From NCBI GenBank assembly GCA_965248755.1, contig OZ252149.1, forward strand, positions 3,104,001 through 3,168,000: DNA of 64,000 nucleotides. Direction: 5' to 3'. The notes below the pieces were generated by a model. It was not told the origin of the DNA. It was given only the letters and a program-made list of their open reading frames with translations, and did not search any database. Source of the DNA: Candidatus Latescibacterota bacterium. Lineage in GTDB: Bacteria > Latescibacterota > CBDEFO01. The position numbers were made by a program, and so were the translations under genes. Position 1 is the first letter of the stretch. Each line of letters starts with the position of its first letter. Below are positions 537 through 61,927 of the stretch, piece after piece.

Positions 537-3500
537 TTAGTCTTCTGCCCTGATCTCATCGACCTCCGGGGGTTCATTCTCGATCGGCGACTCCTGCTGT
601 GCCTTCAGGTACTTCTCCACCGCAGGCCGGCCGAATCTGAAGAAGACCGTCGGAGTAACGAACATGTCCAGCAGCGTGGAGCTCACCAGTCCTCCGAACA
701 CGACGAAGGCCAGAGGATAGAGGATCTCCTTGCCCGACTCGCCGGCGGCCAGCATCAACGGAAAGAGTCCCAGCCCGGTGGTCAGCGCCGTCATCAGCAC
801 CGGCACCAGCCGTTCCAGCGACCCCCGGATGATCATCTTTTCGTTGAACTGCTCTCCCTCCTCCTGTACCAGATGGATGTAGTGGGAGAGCATCATGATC
901 CCGTTCCTGGAGGCGATGCCGCAGAGCGTTATGAACCCGACCAGGGTGGCGACGGAGAGCACTCCGCCGGTGATGAAGACCGCGATCACACTCCCGATCA
1001 GGGCAAAGGGGATGTTGAGCATGATCTGCAAGACGATCCGGACCGACTTAAAGTGAGTGTAAAGGACCAGGAAGATCATCCCAACCGAGAAGATGCTCAA
1101 AATAGCGAGCAGTCTGCTGGCCGCCTGCTCACTTTCGAACTGCCCTCCGTAGGTCACGAAGTAGCCTGTAGGCAGATCCACCTGTGCCCGGACTTTCTCC
1201 TGGATTGCCCGCACTACGCTGTTGAGGTCTCGTCCGGCGGTGTTGCACTGGATCACGATCCGGCGGCGCGCGTTCTCGTGGGCAATGATGTTGGGCCCTG
1301 TGGTCTGGACCACATCGGCCACCAGACTGAGGGGAATCTTGGCGCCGGTGGGAGTATCGATCAGCGCGTTCTGGAGCGATGCCGGGTCATTCCGCGACTG
1401 TTCATCAAACTGCACTATCACATCGAAGGTCCGCTGTCCGTCCAGAATCTGAGAGACTACGCGGCCGCTGAAGGCCGTCTCCAGGGCCTCCGCAACCTCG
1501 GCCATGCTGAGTCCATACCGCATGGCCTGGTCTCGTCGGATATTGATCTTCACCTGGGGCACCAGCACCTGTTTCTCCACCTGGAGATCCACCACCCCGG
1601 GCACAGTAGCCATGGCGTCCCGGATCTCTCCGGCCTTGGTTCGCAGGACCTCCAGGTCCTCCCCGAAGAGCTTCACGGCCAGTTGTGCCCGGACGCCTGA
1701 GAGGAGGTGATCAATCCGGTGGGAGATGGGCTGGCCGATGTTGAGGACGGTACCCGAAATCTGAGAGACCCTCGCCCGAATATCCGCCAGGATCTCCGCC
1801 CGGCTCCGGTCGGATTCCTTCAGATCGACGTCGATCTCGGTGGAGTGCACTCCCTCGGCGTGCTCGTCCAGCTCCGCCCGACCTGTACGCCGTCCAGTCG
1901 AGACCACCTCCGGCACGCCTAAGAGGAGTTGCTCGGCGATCCTTCCGAGCCGGTTCGACTCTTCCAGAGAGGTTCCGGGCACGGAGAGGAGGTTGATCGT
2001 GGCGGTTCCCTCGTTGAAGGAAGGCAGGAACTCCCGCCCCATCAACAGCACGAGAGATGCTGCAACCAGGACCAGCGCGCCGGTGATCCCCATCACGGTG
2101 TAGGGGCGCTTCAGTGTGATCCGGAGCTGCTTTGTGTCCCAGTGCTTCAGCCACCGGACGAAGAAGCTATCCTCCTCTTTCTCCATGAACTTCGCCTTCG
2201 GCAGAAGGTAGACGCACAGCGCAGGCGTCACGGTCAGTGAGACCAGCAGCGAGGCCACGATCGACACGACATAGGCGATCCCCAGGGGCGTGAACATCCG
2301 TCCTTCCACACCGCCGAGAGCAAAGAGCGGCATGAAGACCAGAATCACAATAATGGTGGCGTAGACGATGGAGTTCCGGATCTCGCTGGAGGCTTTAAAG
2401 ACCACCCGCAGGGAGGATTCGGGATCAGGCCTTTGCCGGTTCTCCTTCAGACGCCGGAAGACATTCTCCACTCCTACAATGGCATCGTCCACTAACTCCC
2501 CCAGGCCCACAGCCAGCCCACCCAGCGTCATGGTGTTTACGGAGATGCCGGCGATCTTGAAGAAGATGGCTGTCGTGATGAATGAGAGCGGGATGGCCGT
2601 CAGGGTGATGAAGCTTGTCCGGAAGTTGAGCAGAAAGAGAAAGAGCACCGCCACCACCAGCACCCCCCCGTCCCGCAGGGCCTCCTTCACGTTGCGGATG
2701 GAAGCGTCGATGAAGTTGGACTGTCGAAAGAGGTGGGTGTCGATCTTCACGTCGGACGGCAGGGAACCTTTCAACTCTTCCACTGCCCGGTCGATCTGTT
2801 CAGTAAGGGGCATCGTGTCAGAACCGGGCTGCTTCTGCACCGTCAGGATCACTGCCGGAAGGCCGTCCATTCCGGCGTCGCCCCGCTTGAAAGGGGGACC
2901 GCCGTAGCGCACATCGGCCAGGTGTTTCACCAGGATCGGCGCCCCGTCCCGAACCGTCACCACCGCGTTGCCGATGTCCTCGAGCTGTGTGGTACGGCCG
3001 ATATTCCGGACCAGGTACTCCTGTCCGCCCCGAAAGAGAAACCCGCCGCCGGTGTTGACATTGGCAGCGGCAACGGCTGCTTCAAGCTCCTGAAGGCTCA
3101 CATTGAAATCCCGCAGTTTCTCCGGGAAGACCCGTACTTGGTACTGCTTCACGTCGCCGCCGATGACCGTCACCTGGGCGATGCCCGGAATAGTCAGCAG
3201 ACGCCGCCGCACTATCCAGTCGGCCAGGGTCCGCACCTCCATCGGCGAGGTGGATGTTCCGCTCATACCGATCAGCATGATCTCCCCCATGATGGAGGAG
3301 ATGGGTCCCATTACCGGGGTCACTCCTTCCGGGAGCTGTCCGACGGCCATCTGAAGGCGTTCGGAGACAAGCTGCCGATCCCGATAGATGTCGGTGCCCC
3401 ACTCGAACTCCACGAAGATGAGCGAGAGCCCGATGGAGGAGAAACTGCGGACGCGGCGGACACCTGGCGCCCCGTTCATCACAGACTCGATCTGGAGTGT

Positions 3501-5466: not shown

Positions 5467-6786
5467 CTATCGTGTCGCAGCCTTAAGGGGGCCGCCAACG
5501 GCCTGTTCAAGCCTGGCCAGAGCCTCGCGGTAGGCAAAGAGGACATCGAAGTAGGCAAGACGCATCCGGGAGATCCGATCGGTCTGGACGAGCAGGACGG
5601 TTAGGTCGAGTTCACCGGCCTCGTAAGCTTTCACGAGCAGATCAGCGTTCTGCTCAACACGCGGAAGCAGCAGTCGGTAGGACTCCTGCGCCTGTTTTAC
5701 CCCTATGAATCGCCGGTAGGCGCTGGTGACCTCCATTCTGATGCGCTGCTCCAGGGCCTCGCGCCTGGCCCTGGCTACGTTCTTTTCAGCCTTTGCCTCC
5801 TGCACGCCTGCCTGGTTTCGGTTCAGGAGGGGCAGCGGAAGCGCCACCTGGATGCGAAAGAGACGATCCCTATCGCGAATGCCCCCAATGCCTCCGATGA
5901 TCGCGGGATCGCCGGTGAAATCATCTGGCGTGAAAACCGTGCTCTCCTGGTCATAGGTGAGGGATATCTTCGGGTTAGGAATCGCAGATGCAAGCGCAAG
6001 ATCGATCCCTTTCTGGGCGGCCTGTTCCTCCAGGCTCGTCGCCACAAGATCCTGGCGTTTCTCTAAACTGAGTCGCACAAGTTGGTCAAGGCCGAGGTTA
6101 AGAGACATGAAAGTAGTGTCAGCCCTCACAGCAGTGACCTGTTCTTCAGGAAGGCCGAGGAGGAGATTCAAGTCAGCCAGGGCAGCCAGGGATTCGGCCT
6201 CCAGACGGGAGCGTTCAGCAGTGGCCAGGCCGAGTTCAGCAGCGATCAGGTTGACCTCCAGCTCAGAGATTTCGCCTGCCCGGTAGCGCAGCTCCGCGGC
6301 GACAGCCAGGCGTTCGTTTAGGGTTAGGATACTATCGGCCACTTTTAGTTTCTCACTGCTAAGGGCCTGGCGGTGATACGCAATTTTTACCTCACCCGTC
6401 AGGAGCTGCTCGAACCGCGCGATCTCGGCATGCACCCGATCCAGAGTCATATTGGCGATCCGCTTCCGTTTCCCGCGCTGGCCCGCGATCTCGATCTCCT
6501 GGGAAAGGGAGAGGCTGTATCCGCCGTTGCCCCGGTTGCCGAACAGGCGGTCGGAGGCACTCTCGAATTCAAATTCGGGATTGAAGGGGAGGAGGAGTCC
6601 TGCCAGTGTCCGCTGGCTTCTGGCAACACCCAGGCGCAATCGTTCGGCCTGCAGGTCCGGATTTCTGGCCCGGGCTTCGCTGAGAGCCTGCTGAAGGGTT
6701 AAAACTTCCTGGGGAATTGAGGTCATCGGAGCCCCCAGTAACAGGGCAACGAGACAGACCGACAGAAGAACTGGACGACAGAGCAT
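5467..6786 (-). CDS. TolC/CzcC-family outer-membrane efflux protein
   Basis: 439 aa with signal peptide and NPDL, LSQEIEIAGQRG, LPLPLLNRNQ and YEAGE motifs; first large gene of the RND operon. Confidence 0.9.
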   Translation of the reverse strand: MLCRPVLLSVCLVALLLGAPMTSIPQEVLTLQQALSEARARNPDLQAERLRLGVARSQRTLAGLLLPFNPEFEFESASDRLFGNRGNGGYSLSLSQEIEIAGQRGKRKRIANMTLDRVHAEIARFEQLLTGEVKIAYHRQALSSEKLKVADSILTLNERLAVAAELRYRAGEISELEVNLIAAELGLATAERSRLEAESLAALADLNLLLGLPEEQVTAVRADTTFMSLNLGLDQLVRLSLEKRQDLVATSLEEQAAQKGIDLALASAIPNPKISLTYDQESTVFTPDDFTGDPAIIGGIGGIRDRDRLFRIQVALPLPLLNRNQAGVQEAKAEKNVARARREALEQRIRMEVTSAYRRFIGVKQAQESYRLLLPRVEQNADLLVKAYEAGELDLTVLLVQTDRISRMRLAYFDVLFAYREALARLEQAVGGPLKAATR

Positions 6787-48085: not shown

Positions 48086-49601
48086 AAGCCTTGTGAAATA
48101 GTTATCTTGTAGGCAGCGTCTGAAACGCTTATTATGGGTCAAACAGTAGCATATCGTATCGTTTTGCTATGGAATAAGCAAAATAGTCTCATCAGAGTTC
48201 TGGTCAGCAAGGAATAGAAGCTGTTTGAAGAACAGGATGCACTGTCTTTGACAGACAGGGCACATATAGACGCTTTTCTCCTTCTTATGAAGGATACAAG
48301 CCTCTTGAGATTCTGCACTGTTGCAACAAGATTTAACTGTTCATTCAGTGAGGCCAATCCCCTGTAACGGGCTCGGCCCATACCGTGCTGTTGTTTGGCT
48401 TCAGCAAAGATATGTTCACTGCGTTTGCGGAGCTTCTGGGAGAGTCTGTAGTCAGATGTCAATGAGATAGATCGTGCATAATTCCTGGCCTTTGCCTCTC
48501 GCACTTTCTTATCTCGCTTGGCCTGAATATGTACGAAATTTGTCTTGTTTTTCCAAGTAGGAATTGGCTCAATCTCTTCACCTGATCGCAGAGGAATGTG
48601 GGGTGTGATTCCCCAGTCAAGTATATCAGCGATAAAACCACCAGAACCGTAACCGGTATCGGCAGTAAGTGTCTGAATGCCTTCGGGCATAGTGTATACT
48701 TCAAGATCATCAACCATCTTAAGGGCACTTTCAGTCTCGGCTGTCGCCTGTGTGCCCTGTGTCTCAAGGATTACTCTACTTTTTGTGTCGATGAGATCAT
48801 GACCCATAAACGAAAGAGAAGCCCCCGTGCCTTTTGACTTTTTGTATAAGAGAGCATCGGGGTCTGTAGTCGAACGGTGCGTCTGGTTCGTCCACTTTTC
48901 ACCATGAAAGTCCTTATCGTGAGAATGCCCAGACCTATCTTCGGCCTGTACCTTATCACCTTCAAAACCCATTTCCTTTAGGTAGTCATCAAGAGAAACA
49001 GGAAGCTCTATCGGCTCAATACTCTTCACCGAAGCATTCGCTCGTATCTGAGTGCCATCAACACTTAAGTGTTTACCGCTCACAAGACCGACATCTATAC
49101 AGCGCTGGACTACCTGACGCATTATCTGTTCAAACAATCCACTAGATGCCCACTTGTGATTGCGAAGCTTGTTGATCGTGCTTCTGTCTGGAACCTCATC
49201 CTCAAATGTCTGATGACAAAACAACCTATATGCCGCATGCATCGCCACTTCCTGACAAAGCCGATTCTCACTCAAATTATACAAATAGCCGATAAGGATC
49301 ATTCGAATAACTAATTCAGGATCAATACCGGGTCTGCCATTATCAGAGCAATAACAATCTGACACAACGTCTCGTACAAATGAAAAATCAACCGCTTTAT
49401 CAATTTGACGGAGAATATGGTCTTGGGGAACTAAATCCTCCATCTGAAAATAGTGAAATATCAGATTTGTCTGTTCCTTCTTTTGTGGCGTTATTATTTC
49501 CTCCATGTATAATATTATCAATGATATAATATAATACATGGAGATTGCTCCGTCAATGTTTTTATACTATTTGTTCGATTTAAGGGTTTTTCACAAGGCT
49601 T
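48086..49601 (-). mobile_element. IS1182-family insertion sequence, apparently intact
   Basis: 13-bp terminal IRs AAGCCTTGTGAAA / TTTCACAAGGCTT, flanked by a TTAG direct repeat (48082-48085 and 49602-49605). Confidence 0.9.
48139..49506 (-). CDS. IS1182-family DDE transposase
   Basis: VPQDH, GRPGIDP, VDGT-I-ANAS, STTDPDA, ADTGY and EHIFAEAK motifs. Confidence 0.92.
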   Translation of the reverse strand: MEEIITPQKKEQTNLIFHYFQMEDLVPQDHILRQIDKAVDFSFVRDVVSDCYCSDNGRPGIDPELVIRMILIGYLYNLSENRLCQEVAMHAAYRLFCHQTFEDEVPDRSTINKLRNHKWASSGLFEQIMRQVVQRCIDVGLVSGKHLSVDGTQIRANASVKSIEPIELPVSLDDYLKEMGFEGDKVQAEDRSGHSHDKDFHGEKWTNQTHRSTTDPDALLYKKSKGTGASLSFMGHDLIDTKSRVILETQGTQATAETESALKMVDDLEVYTMPEGIQTLTADTGYGSGGFIADILDWGITPHIPLRSGEEIEPIPTWKNKTNFVHIQAKRDKKVREAKARNYARSISLTSDYRLSQKLRKRSEHIFAEAKQQHGMGRARYRGLASLNEQLNLVATVQNLKRLVSFIRRRKASICALSVKDSASCSSNSFYSLLTRTLMRLFCLFHSKTIRYATV

Positions 49602-56350: not shown

Positions 56351-56507
56351 AATCCTCACTACGACCTTCCCACTGCTTTTCTCGGCTTTTTTGTCAACTC
56401 CGCTCACCGGTTTCTCTGTGTTCTGGCTCCCCATACGCAAGTAGACAGTAAACAGGGACATAGCTTCCCATCCCTGTGTGCTGTCTACTATGTTTTGGTC
56501 GCCATAT

Positions 56508-56535
56508 GAACTTTTGAATTCCCCGCGGTGTCTTA
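56508..56535 (+). promoter_or_regulatory. Candidate ECF-type (sigmaE-like) autoregulatory promoter
   Basis: GAACTT(56508-56513)-16 bp-GTCTTA(56530-56535), about 100 bp upstream of the ECF sigma gene. Confidence 0.6.
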
Positions 56536-56630: not shown

Positions 56631-57236
56631 TTGATGACACAATCCGATCGAGACCTCATTGGGAAGATTCGGGATCGCGATGCCAACGCCTTCGAGACGC
56701 TATTTGTGCGCTACAGGGAGATGGTCCGCCGACACTTGGCGAGCATAGTGCACGACGAGGATGGGGCCGACGACCTGGTGCAGGAGGTCTTTCTGCGGGT
56801 ATGGACTCGCGCAGAGCAGTGGAACGGCCGGGGGGCATTTAAGGCGTGGCTCTTCCGCATCGCTACAAACCTTGCACTTAACCACCTGCGCAGTCTGCGT
56901 AGGAGAAGACAGCAATCTCTCGACATCTCAGCGGATCCAGCCGACGACGACGACGAAAGTCCTGTCCCCGGATGGATGATCGACGCCTCGTCACTCGGAC
57001 CTGATGCGGTGCTTGAACAGGCCGAACAGCACGACCTACTCCAGGGTCTTATCGATAGGTTGCCCGAAGAAAAGCGCGAGGTTTTCCGGATGGTGCACGA
57101 GGTGGAGGTGGACATTCGGGATGTCGCCCACGCACTTGATATCCCAGAGGGCACCGTAAAATCGCGCCTGCACTACGCCAGGAAACATCTCGCTCGAAAA
57201 TGGAAGGAAATAGCGATAGAATGGGAGGATATGTAA
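56631..57236 (+). CDS. ECF (group 4) RNA polymerase sigma factor
   Basis: Region 2 ADDLVQEVFLRVW...FKAWLFRIATN and region 4 LPEEKREVF...VAHALDIPEGTVKSRLHYAR. Confidence 0.95.
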   Translation: MMTQSDRDLIGKIRDRDANAFETLFVRYREMVRRHLASIVHDEDGADDLVQEVFLRVWTRAEQWNGRGAFKAWLFRIATNLALNHLRSLRRRRQQSLDISADPADDDDESPVPGWMIDASSLGPDAVLEQAEQHDLLQGLIDRLPEEKREVFRMVHEVEVDIRDVAHALDIPEGTVKSRLHYARKHLARKWKEIAIEWEDM

Positions 57237-60200
57237 TGGCACTGGATATATCTGCGTTTTGGCATAGGGAATCGTTCGACCGGTTTTTGAAGGACCAGTT
57301 ACCCCAGCTCCTGGCTGCTCGGATGCCGCTTGTCGCCTATCATGTCGAATCGACCGGCATCTACACCTGTCACGTTAAGGTTGCTTTTGGGTCTGCCTCC
57401 GGAGACGTAGACGTCGAGTACACTGACCTTCCTCAACCGGACGAGGAAGGTATCTTCGAGGTCGAAAGCGTAAAGTATGTGGTCGTCCCGATAGCCTTTC
57501 AAGAGGAGTTAGACCTCGCCGAGATCCGCTGTGTCGGCGAACAGCTTTACGACTACTTTGAAGAGCGCCTGGGCGAAGCGCCGGAGGACTTACCATGGGA
57601 CGAGTCGCTCGCGCGAGCCTGGCTTCCGCTCAATGTGTGGATGCGTGAATTCCTGCACGCGGACCTACCGTGGGACGGAAATATAGTGCAAACGGCCCAC
57701 ACGCTCCATGATCAAAACTGGCTCGACAGGCATGCGCATCTGCGGCGCATCGTAGTTATGGACCCAAAGAAGATGTTCACACCTGGGCACCTCGGCCGCA
57801 CCTGTCCCTTCGAGACGCCGGAGGGCCCCAATATCGGTCGAATCCTAAGCATCGCCATGGGCGCGGAGATCAGCGATGGGAAGCTCGTCATTGTCAATGA
57901 TAAGCCTGAAGCTTCCATCGGTCTTTCAGCGTCTATGGTCCCCTTTCTGGAGCACAACGACCCGAACCGACAGCTTATGGGGGTCAACATGATGCGTCAG
58001 TGGTTCGTGCCGGCGGAGGTGGAACCTGCGCTCGTCCAGACCGGAAATGAACCCGACGCACCCGGCTTCTGGTGCGGGCGCAACCTGCTGACTGCCTTTG
58101 TCTCATGGGGTGCGGACACCTTCGAAGACGGCATCGTGGTGGGCAAATCGTGCGCCGAGCGCCTCAACTACCCCCATCCCGTCGAAGTGGGAGACAAGAT
58201 CAGCAACCGCCACGGAACCAAGGGCGTTGTGGCGAATATCCTGCCCGACAAAGAAATGCCGCACCTCGCCGATGGCACTCCGATAGAACTCGTTTTCAAC
58301 TTTATCAGCGTTCATTCGCGGATGAACCTCGGTCAACTGCGTGAGGCGCTAACAAGCCGCATCGCGAAAGCGGAGGGAGCGCCAGTCGTTGTGCCCCCAT
58401 TCGGCGCGCCGGGTGAACGTGAACTTCGCGAACGCCTTGCAAAGGCCGGACTTCCTGAAGACGGGATGGAGGTCCTCACGCTCGGACGCGATGGGCTGAA
58501 ACTGTGCCGGCCGAGCACAGTCGGATGGGTCTACTGGGGACGGCTCAATCACCTGGCGCGCAATAAGATATTTGTGTCTACCGATCACCATAAGCGCTCT
58601 TCAAAACAGGGCGAACTTGAGTATTATGCACTACGCGACGTCGGCACATTTGAAAACCTGATGGAGCATTTCAACACGCGCGCCCTCCGGCGGGACGATG
58701 CGGATAAACTCGCAGATCGCGTCGCAGAAGGCGCGGTCGAACAGGCCGGCCCGCCGACTCCCGGGTTCTCCGAAATAGCTCGGCGTCTTGTGGCTGGGGG
58801 GATCCAAGCAGAACTCGAAGGTGAGAAGCTAACGTTCAAATTTGCCAAACCCGAGGGCGATACTCTCAAGCTTGCCCGTCCAGTTGCGCATCCGTGGATA
58901 TGTGATCAAGAATTAGATGAGATCGGCGCTTTTGATGAACTTTCCGAATACCGCAATCTCGCCGAGGTCAACGCCAAAGCAGAACGCATACTCGCAAGCG
59001 ACGCTCCCGAAAGCCTGACCCGCAAAGCTTTTGAACAGCTCCAAACCCACGTGGGAAAGTTCTTCGACGCTCTCCTTGGCCCTCCCCACCTGCGCTTCGG
59101 CGAAAACTCACTCTTCAGCGGGCGAACGGTGATCTCGCCGGGGGCGGACCTTCGGATCGACCAGTTGGGACTTCCGGAAGAGATCGCGTGGACGCTCTTT
59201 GGGCCACTTGTAAGGCGAGAACTCAGCGTAGGGGCAGACTCGCGTGTCTGCCCTCCAGATTCGGGCGAACACATGGGTTCGCCCCTACATAAAGAGGAAG
59301 TAGACACCAGAAGCCCGCGTGCAACGGAGGAGCTCGACGAGATAATGGCGCGCTCGTGGGTCCTTCTACAGCGCATTATGCCCACGTCGTTCCTCGCGTT
59401 TCACCCCGTGCGGTGTCCAGGTCGCACTATCCATATCCATCCGCTCGTGTGTAGCCTGATGAACGCCGACTTTGACGGTGATCAGGCCGCTGTCTTCCTG
59501 CCGATCACCGAGGGCGCACAGCGCGAGGCTGGCGAGCGTCTGTCCGTCGCCGGTCACCTTGCGCGCGACCCGGAACTGCTCAAGTCACTGCTCCCGACGC
59601 ATGAAGCGATGTGGGGCGTTGCGAGTCTGAGCCTTACACCAAAAGGGCGCGAAGAGGTCTCAGAGCTTGCAGGGACTGACGTGACTGCACCCGACGGTAT
59701 CATCACGAGAGACTCGCTTGCCGAGGCGATGAAAGGCGTCCTTGAGTGCGATGGGATCGATAAGACCCTCGAAGTGCTCGAACGGCTGATGCGGCGAGGA
59801 TTTGAGGTCGCAAAGGAATCCGGAGCGTCCATTAGCCCGTTCATCGGGTCGAGCTTAAAGCGCTCGCCAGAGCCAGAAGAGGGTGACGCTGAGATGTGGG
59901 ATGACTACGCGGAGGAGCTTGTGGAACGGATCGCAGGACGCACGGACTTTGAGGACAACGATATGGGTCCGCAACTTCTTGCGATAAAGAGCGGCGCACG
60001 AGGTCAACTGCGCCAGCTTGCCTACCTGGTCGGGGCACGGGGCACAGCTACGGATGTCCGGGGGAGGGACGTACCGATCCGCCGCGGATATTCCGATGGC
60101 CTGACGCCCCAGGAGATGTACGCCGCTGTGGTCGGCGCACGGGAGGGACTTGCCGAAACAGTGCTGGAGACGTGGACGCGGTTTGGACTCGAATTTCATG

Positions 60201-60370
60201 AGGCAAGACAGCCGAAAGGCTTCAACTTCCTTGCGCGCGCAATGCGGGCAAAGCGCCCCGGCATCGTCTTCGCTCGCGCCGCGGCAACGGGCGAGATCGA
60301 TCCACTTACGGACGTCGACAGTCGCCTGTTCGTCGGACTACCCGCAAAATTAGTAGACAGCAAACAGTAG
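57236..60370 (+). CDS. Miniaturised single-chain RNA polymerase beta-beta' (RpoB-RpoC) fusion, ~1044 aa
   Basis: ATG overlaps the sigma stop (TAATG) with a GGAGG RBS. Collinear RpoB motifs: GRTCPFETPEGPNIG, PFLEHNDPNRQLMGVNMMRQ, FEDG, GDKISNRHGTKG, SRMNLGQ, GELEYYAL. Then RpoC motifs: LARPVAHPW, FSGRTVI, HPLVC..NADFDGDQ, SGARG, GAREGLAET. Confidence 0.92.
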   Translation: MALDISAFWHRESFDRFLKDQLPQLLAARMPLVAYHVESTGIYTCHVKVAFGSASGDVDVEYTDLPQPDEEGIFEVESVKYVVVPIAFQEELDLAEIRCVGEQLYDYFEERLGEAPEDLPWDESLARAWLPLNVWMREFLHADLPWDGNIVQTAHTLHDQNWLDRHAHLRRIVVMDPKKMFTPGHLGRTCPFETPEGPNIGRILSIAMGAEISDGKLVIVNDKPEASIGLSASMVPFLEHNDPNRQLMGVNMMRQWFVPAEVEPALVQTGNEPDAPGFWCGRNLLTAFVSWGADTFEDGIVVGKSCAERLNYPHPVEVGDKISNRHGTKGVVANILPDKEMPHLADGTPIELVFNFISVHSRMNLGQLREALTSRIAKAEGAPVVVPPFGAPGERELRERLAKAGLPEDGMEVLTLGRDGLKLCRPSTVGWVYWGRLNHLARNKIFVSTDHHKRSSKQGELEYYALRDVGTFENLMEHFNTRALRRDDADKLADRVAEGAVEQAGPPTPGFSEIARRLVAGGIQAELEGEKLTFKFAKPEGDTLKLARPVAHPWICDQELDEIGAFDELSEYRNLAEVNAKAERILASDAPESLTRKAFEQLQTHVGKFFDALLGPPHLRFGENSLFSGRTVISPGADLRIDQLGLPEEIAWTLFGPLVRRELSVGADSRVCPPDSGEHMGSPLHKEEVDTRSPRATEELDEIMARSWVLLQRIMPTSFLAFHPVRCPGRTIHIHPLVCSLMNADFDGDQAAVFLPITEGAQREAGERLSVAGHLARDPELLKSLLPTHEAMWGVASLSLTPKGREEVSELAGTDVTAPDGIITRDSLAEAMKGVLECDGIDKTLEVLERLMRRGFEVAKESGASISPFIGSSLKRSPEPEEGDAEMWDDYAEELVERIAGRTDFEDNDMGPQLLAIKSGARGQLRQLAYLVGARGTATDVRGRDVPIRRGYSDGLTPQEMYAAVVGAREGLAETVLETWTRFGLEFHEARQPKGFNFLARAMRAKRPGIVFARAAATGEIDPLTDVDSRLFVGLPAKLVDSKQ
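59228..59288. repeat. GTAG-type REP doublet inserted in-frame in the mini-RNAP gene
   Basis: GTAGGGGCAGACTCGCGTGTCTGCCC...GGGCGAACACATGGGTTCGCCCCTAC. Confidence 0.85.
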
Positions 60371-60441: not shown

Positions 60442-60668
60442 ACAGAGAGTGTTGGCAATGATGTTGCTTGTCCTTTTGTCATTGCACAGTGCCAAAAGTC
60501 CGAAGCAATCTCAAAAACACTTTCTATGGTCATTGCGAGGCAGCGTGGCCGCTCTGCTGGGATGGCTGAAAGCCACGGAGGTTGTGGTAAACTGTTAGTT
60601 GAGTGTGGCAGGCAAAAGAGGTTATTTCTACCGTTAGGCGTAAGATCAGAACATAAAAGGAGGAAACA

Positions 60669-61646
60669 TTGAACCAAGTTCTTGATGACACCAAGAAAAC
60701 GTTTCGCAGTCTGCTCGACGAAAGCACTGATCATCAATGCATTATCGACTTGCTCGTATCTCTTCGGGAAAAGGTCGATTTGTCGGTGGACGATACTGGG
60801 TGGGCCTTGTGGAATATTTGCGACCAATACGCACTAATGCGGGATGCAAAGAACCAGTACACTTATCAGTCCGAGTTTCACGAGTGGGCCAAAGCCAATC
60901 TTCCCCCTTCGAGGTTTCACTGGGTTGTCTCGGACGGGACGCAGGCACTCAGTCTGATTGATGGCGGCTATCTCGACTTCTGGTGGCGATGTTACAACCT
61001 CGCCAACGAGCAATGCCCACGAGATGCTAAGAACCGCGGCGCCCGATTCGAATCGCATAGAGCCAATGCAGCTTCATATACTCACTTTCGGGAATTCAGT
61101 CGTGCTGAAACCGCCCTGAATGCAATAGAGGAACTCCTTGCGGAGGATCAGTCCTGGAGCAACCGCGAATTCGCTGCAGCAACATACTCAACTCTCCTGG
61201 TTGACTTTTACAATGTTTCGGAGCAAAGAGACAAACTCGCACAAACAGAGGGAACCCTTGAAAAGGAGCTTGATGATTGGCTTGGCCGAGCAGGCGATGT
61301 AGAAGACGCACCGGAGGGCCCTTTGCTAGGGAGTTGGGACCAACTGAATGCAGATAGGCCACCGGCGGCGATTTTCATTGCAATCAACAACACCGCGTGT
61401 GCTTTCACCAGAGCGAAGCAATTCCCGGATGCAGAACGGTTGTTCCGCATTTTGCTGGAAAGAAACAGGATTCTAAATGCCTATGGCCAAGCGCAATATC
61501 TACAATCATGTTGGGGGAACAGGCGCAACAAGGATGAAATTGTTGATTGGCTGGACGGCTCCAAGCAACTAAACCCACAAAATCTGAAAAGATTCGCACC
61601 ATCGCTCATAGATGTCGTCAAAGATGAACGTCCGGATTTCGCCTAA
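60669..61646 (+). CDS. Hypothetical all-helical (TPR-like) protein in an integron-cassette-like unit
   Basis: AGGAGG RBS with TTG start; helical pattern; bounded by GTTAGGC (60633) and GCCTAAC (61641). Confidence 0.65.
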   Translation: MNQVLDDTKKTFRSLLDESTDHQCIIDLLVSLREKVDLSVDDTGWALWNICDQYALMRDAKNQYTYQSEFHEWAKANLPPSRFHWVVSDGTQALSLIDGGYLDFWWRCYNLANEQCPRDAKNRGARFESHRANAASYTHFREFSRAETALNAIEELLAEDQSWSNREFAAATYSTLLVDFYNVSEQRDKLAQTEGTLEKELDDWLGRAGDVEDAPEGPLLGSWDQLNADRPPAAIFIAINNTACAFTRAKQFPDAERLFRILLERNRILNAYGQAQYLQSCWGNRRNKDEIVDWLDGSKQLNPQNLKRFAPSLIDVVKDERPDFA

Positions 61647-61927
61647 CAATGCGCTCCCCCTGACTGGCAATTCTCTGGTGCTCATTGCCAGCACCTACAC
61701 AAAGTGTACCAAAAAGGGAAACAAAACTTACCGAAACGGTACACAAAGTGTACCAAAATGGTACACTCATCTCCCGTAACTCGTTGTCTTGCAATGTGGT
61801 GCAAAGTCCGAAGCAATCTCAAAAACACTTTCTACGGTAATTGCGAGGCGGTGTGGCCGCTTTGCTGAGATGGCTGGAAGCCACGAAGTGGGCGTAGTAA
61901 TCTGACGGGATGGGGTGGTGCCCCTGT

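Follow-up and report, generated by a model that had tools for sequence, protein, structure and literature searches.

A conserved cassette of a sigma factor and a pruned single-chain RNA polymerase derivative in Latescibacterota, with a predicted role as a sigma-sequestering sensor

The stretch of DNA analysed here (the window; 64,000 nucleotides, positions 3,104,001 to 3,168,000 of contig OZ252149.1 in assembly GCA_965248755.1 of a Candidatus Latescibacterota bacterium) carries a two-gene cassette, in which the gene for a stress-type sigma factor of the extracytoplasmic function (ECF) class is followed by a gene for a heavily pruned, single-chain fusion of two RNA polymerase (RNAP) subunits, beta and beta', hereafter called the mini-polymerase (Table 1). 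The cassette is real, intact and conserved, and no description of the mini-polymerase family was found in the literature searched. From its anatomy and the company it keeps, we tentatively predict that the mini-polymerase is a polymerase-derived partner that sequesters the sigma factor and acts as a sensor, rather than an elongating polymerase. Canonical rpoB and rpoC are present elsewhere in the same genome.

The mini-polymerase was compared by profile-profile alignment with 31 canonical RpoB and 31 RpoC sequences, and canonical residues are given in E. coli numbering throughout. Its order is collinear with the two subunits, running through beta 22-148 and about 449-1341 with large excisions and then through beta' up to 798. 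A scan of genome contigs returned 80 loci, all 80 of them canonical rpoB/rpoC, which were taken as canonical controls. The AlphaFold2 model, built on an alignment of 89 homologues, reached a predicted local distance difference test (pLDDT) score of 92.3 and a predicted template modelling (pTM) score of 0.90. The beta half aligned with the solved beta chain 8i23_C over 525 residues (Z 30.2, root mean square deviation 2.9), and in a separate model of residues 545-1050, 459-483 of the 506 residues aligned with bacterial beta' chains (Z 27-29). This second alignment starts near E. coli residue 21 and ends near 1355, so that the tail of the mini-polymerase is the beta' C-terminal clamp block. The structure comparison gave end-points only, and the internal deletion boundaries were taken from sequence alignment and the secondary structure of the model. 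With ~1,050 residues (115 kDa) against ~2,750, the protein is 40% of the size of the two catalytic subunits. Both double-psi beta-barrels are present, one with the DxDGD motif and the other with two conserved lysines, by which alignment and model place the protein in the two-barrel nucleotidyl polymerase superfamily. The beta segments which we take to be alpha-subunit contacts are kept in the fold, D1084 being mostly Glu and R1216 variable.

An earlier sequence-only reading had held that the flap, the trigger loop, the zinc-binding domain, the lid and the rudder are lacking, and this was borne out. Between D310 of the FEDG motif (window 58121 onwards) and G331 of GDK there are 20 residues against 248 in E. 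coli RpoB, and the spacing of 20 recurs in 99 of the 103 family members that are non-redundant at 85%. The clamp head and lid are reduced to 17 residues over beta' W115-Y269 (153 in E. coli), the rudder and switch 2 to 25 residues over L299-S350 (50 in E. coli) and switch 3 to about 16 residues (31). In place of the zinc-binding domain and zipper a short turn joins the beta' 18-27 strand to the 103-116 strand, and the family alignment holds no conserved Cys cluster in the beta' half. The lobe, the jaw and both trigger helices are also absent from profile alignment and model, and the same pruned anatomy was found in 32 full-length representatives at 43-55% identity. Fork loop 2, which the same reading had considered mostly gone, is shortened rather than absent and lies upstream of position 58120, where that reading began.

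The chain had also been described as passing directly from the start of the bridge helix into the beta' C-terminal block. The block does follow, but the bridge helix before it is complete: it aligns to E. coli beta' 769-798, forms one continuous predicted helix and leads in the model through a 7-residue loop to helices at 1010-1045. The spacing between R981 and R1013 is 25-34 residues in all 103 members. Neither a cryptic flap nor a trigger hairpin appears in the model, and no conserved neighbouring gene could supply one. Five regular-expression matches to the trigger-loop motif all fell in the beta part and were dismissed as chance.

What the sequence-only reading overlooked is that the clamp helices (residues 582-625) are kept. 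Near-invariant here are N591, P603, L606 and L614, with R/K593, R596 and R617 conserved as well. At the positions of R275, E295 and R297, presumably canonical sigma2-contact residues, most members have Ala; R278 and R281 are retained, and A302 has given way to a newly conserved Arg. By alignment this is a rewired surface and not a decayed one.

The best 120 homologues listed are without exception nearly full-length and share 54-91% identity, and their source labels include Poribacteria, Hydrogenedentes and Chloroflexi. A C-terminal profile matched 298 clusters at E 1e-10 or better, a figure that covers many fragments and possibly some canonical RpoC. Across 153 genomes of the window's phylum the polymerase end was found in 64, the cognate sigma in 60 and both in 58, the locus ending at a contig edge in both sigma-only genomes. 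In genus g7 the cassette occurs in 21 of 21 genomes. The ratio of nonsynonymous to synonymous substitution rates (dN/dS) was 0.14-0.35 for the polymerase (8 pairs) and 0.10-0.15 for sigma (2 pairs); both genes are under purifying selection, and a pseudogene was ruled out by these ratios and the occurrence throughout g7. A search of 151 genomes of the class to which G041 (Anaerolineaceae) belongs gave no family member, though two homologues carry Chloroflexi labels. Viral contigs gave 0 matches to the family motif, and phages and plasmids gave no family member, only canonical rpoC-like partial matches, by which a mobile or viral element was ruled out. Genome G082 holds two intact divergent cassettes (L239, L240), and G048 one intact copy and one remnant (L235, L249). 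In a tree with 38 canonical bacterial RNAPs the family formed one long-stemmed clade (support 1.0), and the best solved match was a bacterial beta subunit (E 1.5e-41). As the closest solved relatives are bacterial beta and beta' and the family is one long-stemmed clade among bacterial RNAPs, it is a secondary reduction of bacterial RNAP and not a primordial minimal core. The long stem kept the tree from identifying a donor lineage.

Of the 37 full-length loci that have upstream DNA, 36 carry the sigma gene directly upstream of the polymerase gene, and in the remaining one it stands one gene further away; the count includes the window and two near-duplicate pairs, and leaves aside three loci lacking upstream DNA. 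The sigma factor has regions sigma2 and sigma4 only, with a -35/-10 motif upstream of its gene, as in ECF sigma factors. Residues D47, Q50 and E51 are invariant and the linker is acidic (net charge -2 to -8 in 32/32). A promoter-like motif precedes the sigma gene in all 32 loci with enough upstream sequence (3 were too short), and the spacer is 15 nucleotides long in 26 of the 28 distinct sites. Because the sigma stop overlaps the ATG at 57236, a GGAGG stands upstream of it and the family alignment begins there, the mini-polymerase is probably 1044 residues long and translationally coupled to sigma. Weight-matrix and strict motif searches of this genome and ten relatives found no second sigma target. 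The best weight-matrix matches outside the cassette lay inside called open reading frames (ORFs; 8 inspected), 71 sites, compared with 69 in a reversed control, reached 10 or more of 11 matches (intergenic, 9 against 5), and the ten relatives gave 10 cassette sites and 6 others against 9 control matches. The cassette sigma may have a degenerate regulon. A second strict promoter match was seen in G002 at about 5550-5575 (-) of L208, ~400 nucleotides upstream of an ABC-transporter gene and near another ECF sigma.

In a solved ECF holoenzyme (bioRxiv 10.1101/534826), the beta' coiled coil is the dock of sigma2, while sigma4 is held by the flap tip and a beta C-terminal helix. Both sigma4 anchors are absent from the mini-polymerase. 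Because these two elements, flap and beta C-terminal helix, are what places sigma4, we infer that sigma reads its promoter on the host core enzyme, and since the -35 box and spacer are fixed though the mini-polymerase has a sigma2 anchor only, it is probably the host core that reads the promoter. A sigma trap is the simplest account because the gene sits in the anti-sigma position, the sigma dock is kept, the grips on downstream DNA are all lost and a catalytic Asp can be lost; the downstream position and the co-inheritance with sigma are those of an anti-sigma factor, sigma binding itself being predicted only. In the proposed mechanism, sigma would read its own -35/-10 promoter on the host core enzyme, and the co-translated mini-polymerase would bind sigma2 through its retained clamp helices and damp the positive loop. 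The ligand, which may be a short RNA, the 3' end of an RNA or an initiating nucleotide and is perhaps slowly extended, would bind at the Mg-I site in the hybrid cleft, displace the acidic sigma linker and free sigma, giving as output more cassette and any cargo gene inserted in it. The near-invariant Mg-I site and RNA cleft would thus be the sensor of the trap. During promoter escape, nascent RNA displaces the sigma linker. This specific form, in which a single chain traps sigma, reads short RNAs or initiating nucleotides with what is left of its active site and then lets sigma go, with catalysis optional, is put forward more guardedly than the sequestering role as such. Complex prediction with residues 14-800 and sigma scored 0.18 and 0.01 against a mark of 0.32 and was not used as evidence.

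The conservation of the active site was examined over the 103 sequences in classes of our own grouping, based in part on PMC3994528 and PMC5856549. The Mg-I, i-site and hybrid residues had a mean conservation of 0.97, with D462, D464, Q688, E565 and R528 present in 103/103. The residues of nucleoside triphosphate (NTP) entry and Mg-II (E813, D814, N458, R731, R678, R1106) averaged 0.84; the mean was 0.54 for the switch contacts to DNA and 0.22 for the bridge helix in its second half. Nearly all of these positions are kept in 30-31 of 31 canonical enzymes. D460 is replaced by Asn in 10 of 121 homologues, P0032 and P0065 among them, with two independent origins (a clade of 8, support 1.0, and a pair), and by Tyr in G148. 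The effect of D460N was judged from the described role of the triad (PMC5856549). All members that lost D460, in three lineages, keep full-length ORFs, and since they do, catalysis looks dispensable from the alignment. In genus g42, N458 is changed in all 5 sequences read, R425 is displaced and K1065 is Arg in 4 of 5. Besides the genuine catalytic loop, a second stretch resembling its motif was seen earlier in proteins P0029, P0030, P0035, P0039, P0045, P0048, P0066, P0070 and P0071; by its flanks it sits at the beta/beta' junction turn and is probably a coincidence.

In another explanation, the mini-polymerase joins its sigma in a slow holoenzyme of their own, which would start synthesis de novo through the -10 element and release either short RNAs with many errors or dinucleotides, to serve as primers or signals. 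The intact Asp triad, the conserved binders of the initiating triphosphate, the purifying selection on the polymerase and a compact model with both barrels and a full bridge helix are consistent with it. Precedents exist in the literature: RNAP deleted for the trigger loop still adds nucleotides, ~10^4-fold slower and with poor fidelity (PMC2874521), plant Pol IV and Pol V work slowly and carry degenerate trigger loops (PMC10533338), and the phage enzyme YonO is a further example (PMC5467207). Against this, D460 was lost three times in full-length ORFs, the NTP-entry residues are less strictly kept, the half of the bridge helix that contacts the template is free of constraint, there is no lobe, jaw or clamp head for downstream DNA, and no sigma4 anchor exists despite the conserved -35 box. 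We regard this holoenzyme as a credible though on the whole doubtful explanation. The sequence-only reading had likewise suggested a slow or non-processive enzyme, which fits the anatomy and the loop-deletion precedent, but it had not weighed a role other than polymerisation; given that D460 was lost repeatedly, such a role is no less likely. Slow synthesis could itself be the release trigger, so the trap and a polymerase of short RNAs can overlap.

The patterns of gene loss lean toward the sigma trap. Sigma is broken or missing with the polymerase intact in G083, G139 and G142, and both are damaged in G072, G134 and G145, whereas none of the 153 genomes (leaving out the second copy of G126, and G147) showed, away from contig ends, a broken polymerase beside an intact sigma, although the polymerase gene is five times longer than the sigma gene. 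As an observation apart, the cassette has suffered internal deletions many times independently, with the 3' end of the polymerase gene spared and often the promoter too (L110/L111/L123, L113/L117, L118/L198, L124/L132, L127/L139, L151, L156, L172, L176, L249, L250 and L251), in a sample biased by its being found through a 3' motif. At L251 (G134) the deletion yields an in-frame fusion of the sigma N-terminus to the C-terminal third of the polymerase. As the breakpoints vary, these deletions are read as decay and not as programmed rearrangement.

The survival of the polymerase after sigma loss in three genomes would also suit a third explanation, namely that sigma on the host RNAP switches on the mini-polymerase as an effector that does not bind sigma, either in RNA-end processing (hydrolysis or pyrophosphorolysis at Mg-I) or as a decoy for antibiotics directed at the active site. 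It would agree with the changed sigma2-contact residues and with the ABC exporters found inside the cassette in five g7 genomes and G110. The tabulated beta residues of the GE23077 site (PMC3994528) are 83-100% conserved; these residues also bind RNA and the initiating NTP and so do not point to a drug. The position of S531 in the rifampicin pocket is not Ser, the downstream genes are heterogeneous, and the effector leaves the retained clamp helices and the lack of another sigma regulator unexplained. We consider it unlikely.

Several observations weigh against the preferred reading of the mini-polymerase as a sigma trap. The Asp triad, whose catalytic role is taken from PMC5856549, is intact in this genome and in 100 of the 103 members. 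The equivalents of Q688, K1065, K1073 and H1237, which bind the initiating triphosphate (PMC3994528), are 91-100% conserved, as fits real initiation. The Ala at the positions of R275, E295 and R297 could mean that sigma is not bound at all, the searches described above found no second target that sigma would serve, and YonO works without a recognisable trigger loop. The asymmetry of gene loss rests on three cases, two of them kin, and at the loci L127/L139, where the promoter is altered, sigma is nearly intact and the polymerase next to it shredded.

That YonO is processive without trigger-loop homology (PMC5467207) could also be taken to favour a fully processive second transcription machine whose replacement for the trigger element lies in cis or is supplied by a different gene; a separate gene elsewhere in the genome may provide one. 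The segment which the sequence-only reading had proposed as substitute belongs, by contrast, to the bridge helix, of which it is the C-terminal half, and nowhere is the protein less conserved (mean conservation 0.37). The His of LEFHE, whose conservation that reading had made a check, is H1000. It corresponds in the alignment to beta' R798, and of 89 homologues 1 has His at this position and 68 have Arg. No near-invariant His occurs in residues 880-1050, the best being 71/103 at position 962 in the F-loop region. No neighbouring gene is conserved and no target promoters beyond the cassette's own were found in this genome or ten relatives, which leaves the processive machine very improbable. 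A trigger loop supplied in trans by an upstream DksA-zinc-finger gene was rejected, that gene being a matter of lineage synteny in 7 loci and absent from this genome. It belongs to an unannotated gene pair seen upstream of the cassette in two families (L201-L203, L206, L210, L211, L250), likewise absent here, which encodes an N-terminal DksA/TraR zinc finger with about 300 further residues and a 310-residue protein without Pfam match.

Around the cassette no other gene is conserved and the downstream genes differ between genomes. In some genomes cargo genes lie between sigma and polymerase. The exporters mentioned above are MsbA-like (597 or 586 residues; the one in G110 is 40% identical to those of g7) and occupy this place at L252-L254, L256, L257 and L232. 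In the window a TPR-like ORF follows the polymerase gene and is homologous (E 2e-9) to sigma-polymerase cargo in the g7 genomes G032, G040 and G088; it is absent from the sister genome G001 and lies between direct repeats (60495-60580 and 61803-61888, 91% identical). Three repeats of a 27-nucleotide unit, spaced by 22 nucleotides, were seen at 61696-61766. Further upstream, a 466-residue ORF at 48139-49539 (-) lies upstream of two secreted-looking proteins; we take it to be an insertion sequence transposase, and the repeats of its neighbours are presumably cohesin-like.

Table 1. Features of the cassette and its surroundings in the window
Feature	Position	Strand	Remark
Two-gene unit: ECF sigma gene, then single-chain pruned beta-beta' gene	56631..57236 + 57200..60370	+
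ECF-type promoter TGAAC-N15-GGTGTC	56507..56532	+	5' of sigma gene; autoregulation inferred
ECF sigma factor: sigma2, acidic linker, sigma4; 201 residues; one orthologous family	56631..57236	+	Pfam Sigma70_r2 and r4_2
Mini-polymerase ORF, pruned beta-beta' fusion, 1056 residues (1056 codons)	57200..60370	+
Likely mini-polymerase start ATG, overlapping sigma stop	57236	+	gives 1044 residues
GGAGG 5' of the likely mini-polymerase ATG	57224-57228	+
Shortened fork loop 2, 15 against 24 residues	57749..57793	+	alignment
20-residue linker replacing the flap region (E. coli beta 815-1062)	58130..58189	+	alignment and model
Beta/beta' junction, short turn; zipper and zinc-binding domain excised	58820..58864	+
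Clamp helices (beta' coiled coil), retained, surface apparently rewired	58943..59074	+
Short connector; rudder and part of switch 2 deleted	59075..59107	+
Catalytic loop, intact Asp triad D757/D759/D761 (= beta' D460/D462/D464)	59462..59482	+
Complete bridge helix, residues 970-1002	60107..60205	+
7-residue loop replacing beta' about 805-1317 (both trigger helices, jaw, second zinc site)	60206..60226	+
Beta' C-terminal clamp block, best conserved segment (0.79)	60227..60343	+	weak by sequence alone; structure supports
Accessory TPR-like ORF, 325 residues, flanked by 86-nucleotide direct repeats	60669..61646	+

In cellular RNA polymerases, catalysis and fidelity depend centrally on the trigger loop. 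Anti-sigma genes of ECF systems generally follow their sigma gene in a coupled, autoregulated operon. The mini-polymerase gene resembles these in standing directly after sigma, in its probable translational coupling and in its presumably autoregulated operon, but the protein lacks a known anti-sigma domain and derives from the RNAP core. With the bacterial core enzyme in complex with ECF sigma (for example PDB 8i23, 6jcx) it shares the collinear order, fold, barrels, triad, bridge helix and clamp helices; it is ~35% identical to canonical RNAP over 656 core columns and differs in having no flap, lobe, zinc-binding domains, lid, rudder, jaw or trigger helices. It misses the NCBIfam cut-offs for rpoB (170 against 801 bits), rpoC (125 against 964) and the fusion (185 against 4632), the full-length RpoB-RpoC fusions being PRK09603 and PRK14844. 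YonO of phage SPbeta (PMC5467207) is also a single chain of ~100 kDa without trigger-loop homology; it is phage-borne, only remotely homologous to cellular RNAP and proven processive, whereas the mini-polymerase has its origin in bacterial beta/beta', lies on the chromosome and is linked to an ECF sigma. [quoted passage not shown] Judged by family cut-offs and these features, the mini-polymerase fits none of canonical RpoB/RpoC, the full-length fusions and the YonO-like enzymes. No such sigma neighbour turned up in the one supplement searched of the ECF re-classification paper (PMC7826278).

The family thus represents a widespread and selected natural derivative of RNAP, from which the trigger loop and the DNA-gripping appendages are cleanly gone while the barrels, the RNA cleft and the sigma dock are kept in one 115-kDa chain. 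If it polymerises, it would offer a single-gene test of the two-barrel core without the loop, with the natural D460N variants as controls. If it traps sigma, it would be a new class of regulator in which an essential enzyme has been repurposed as a sensor, an anti-sigma factor built from the very enzyme that sigma normally serves. Either way, the sigma-promoter pair is a compact and possibly orthogonal expression part.

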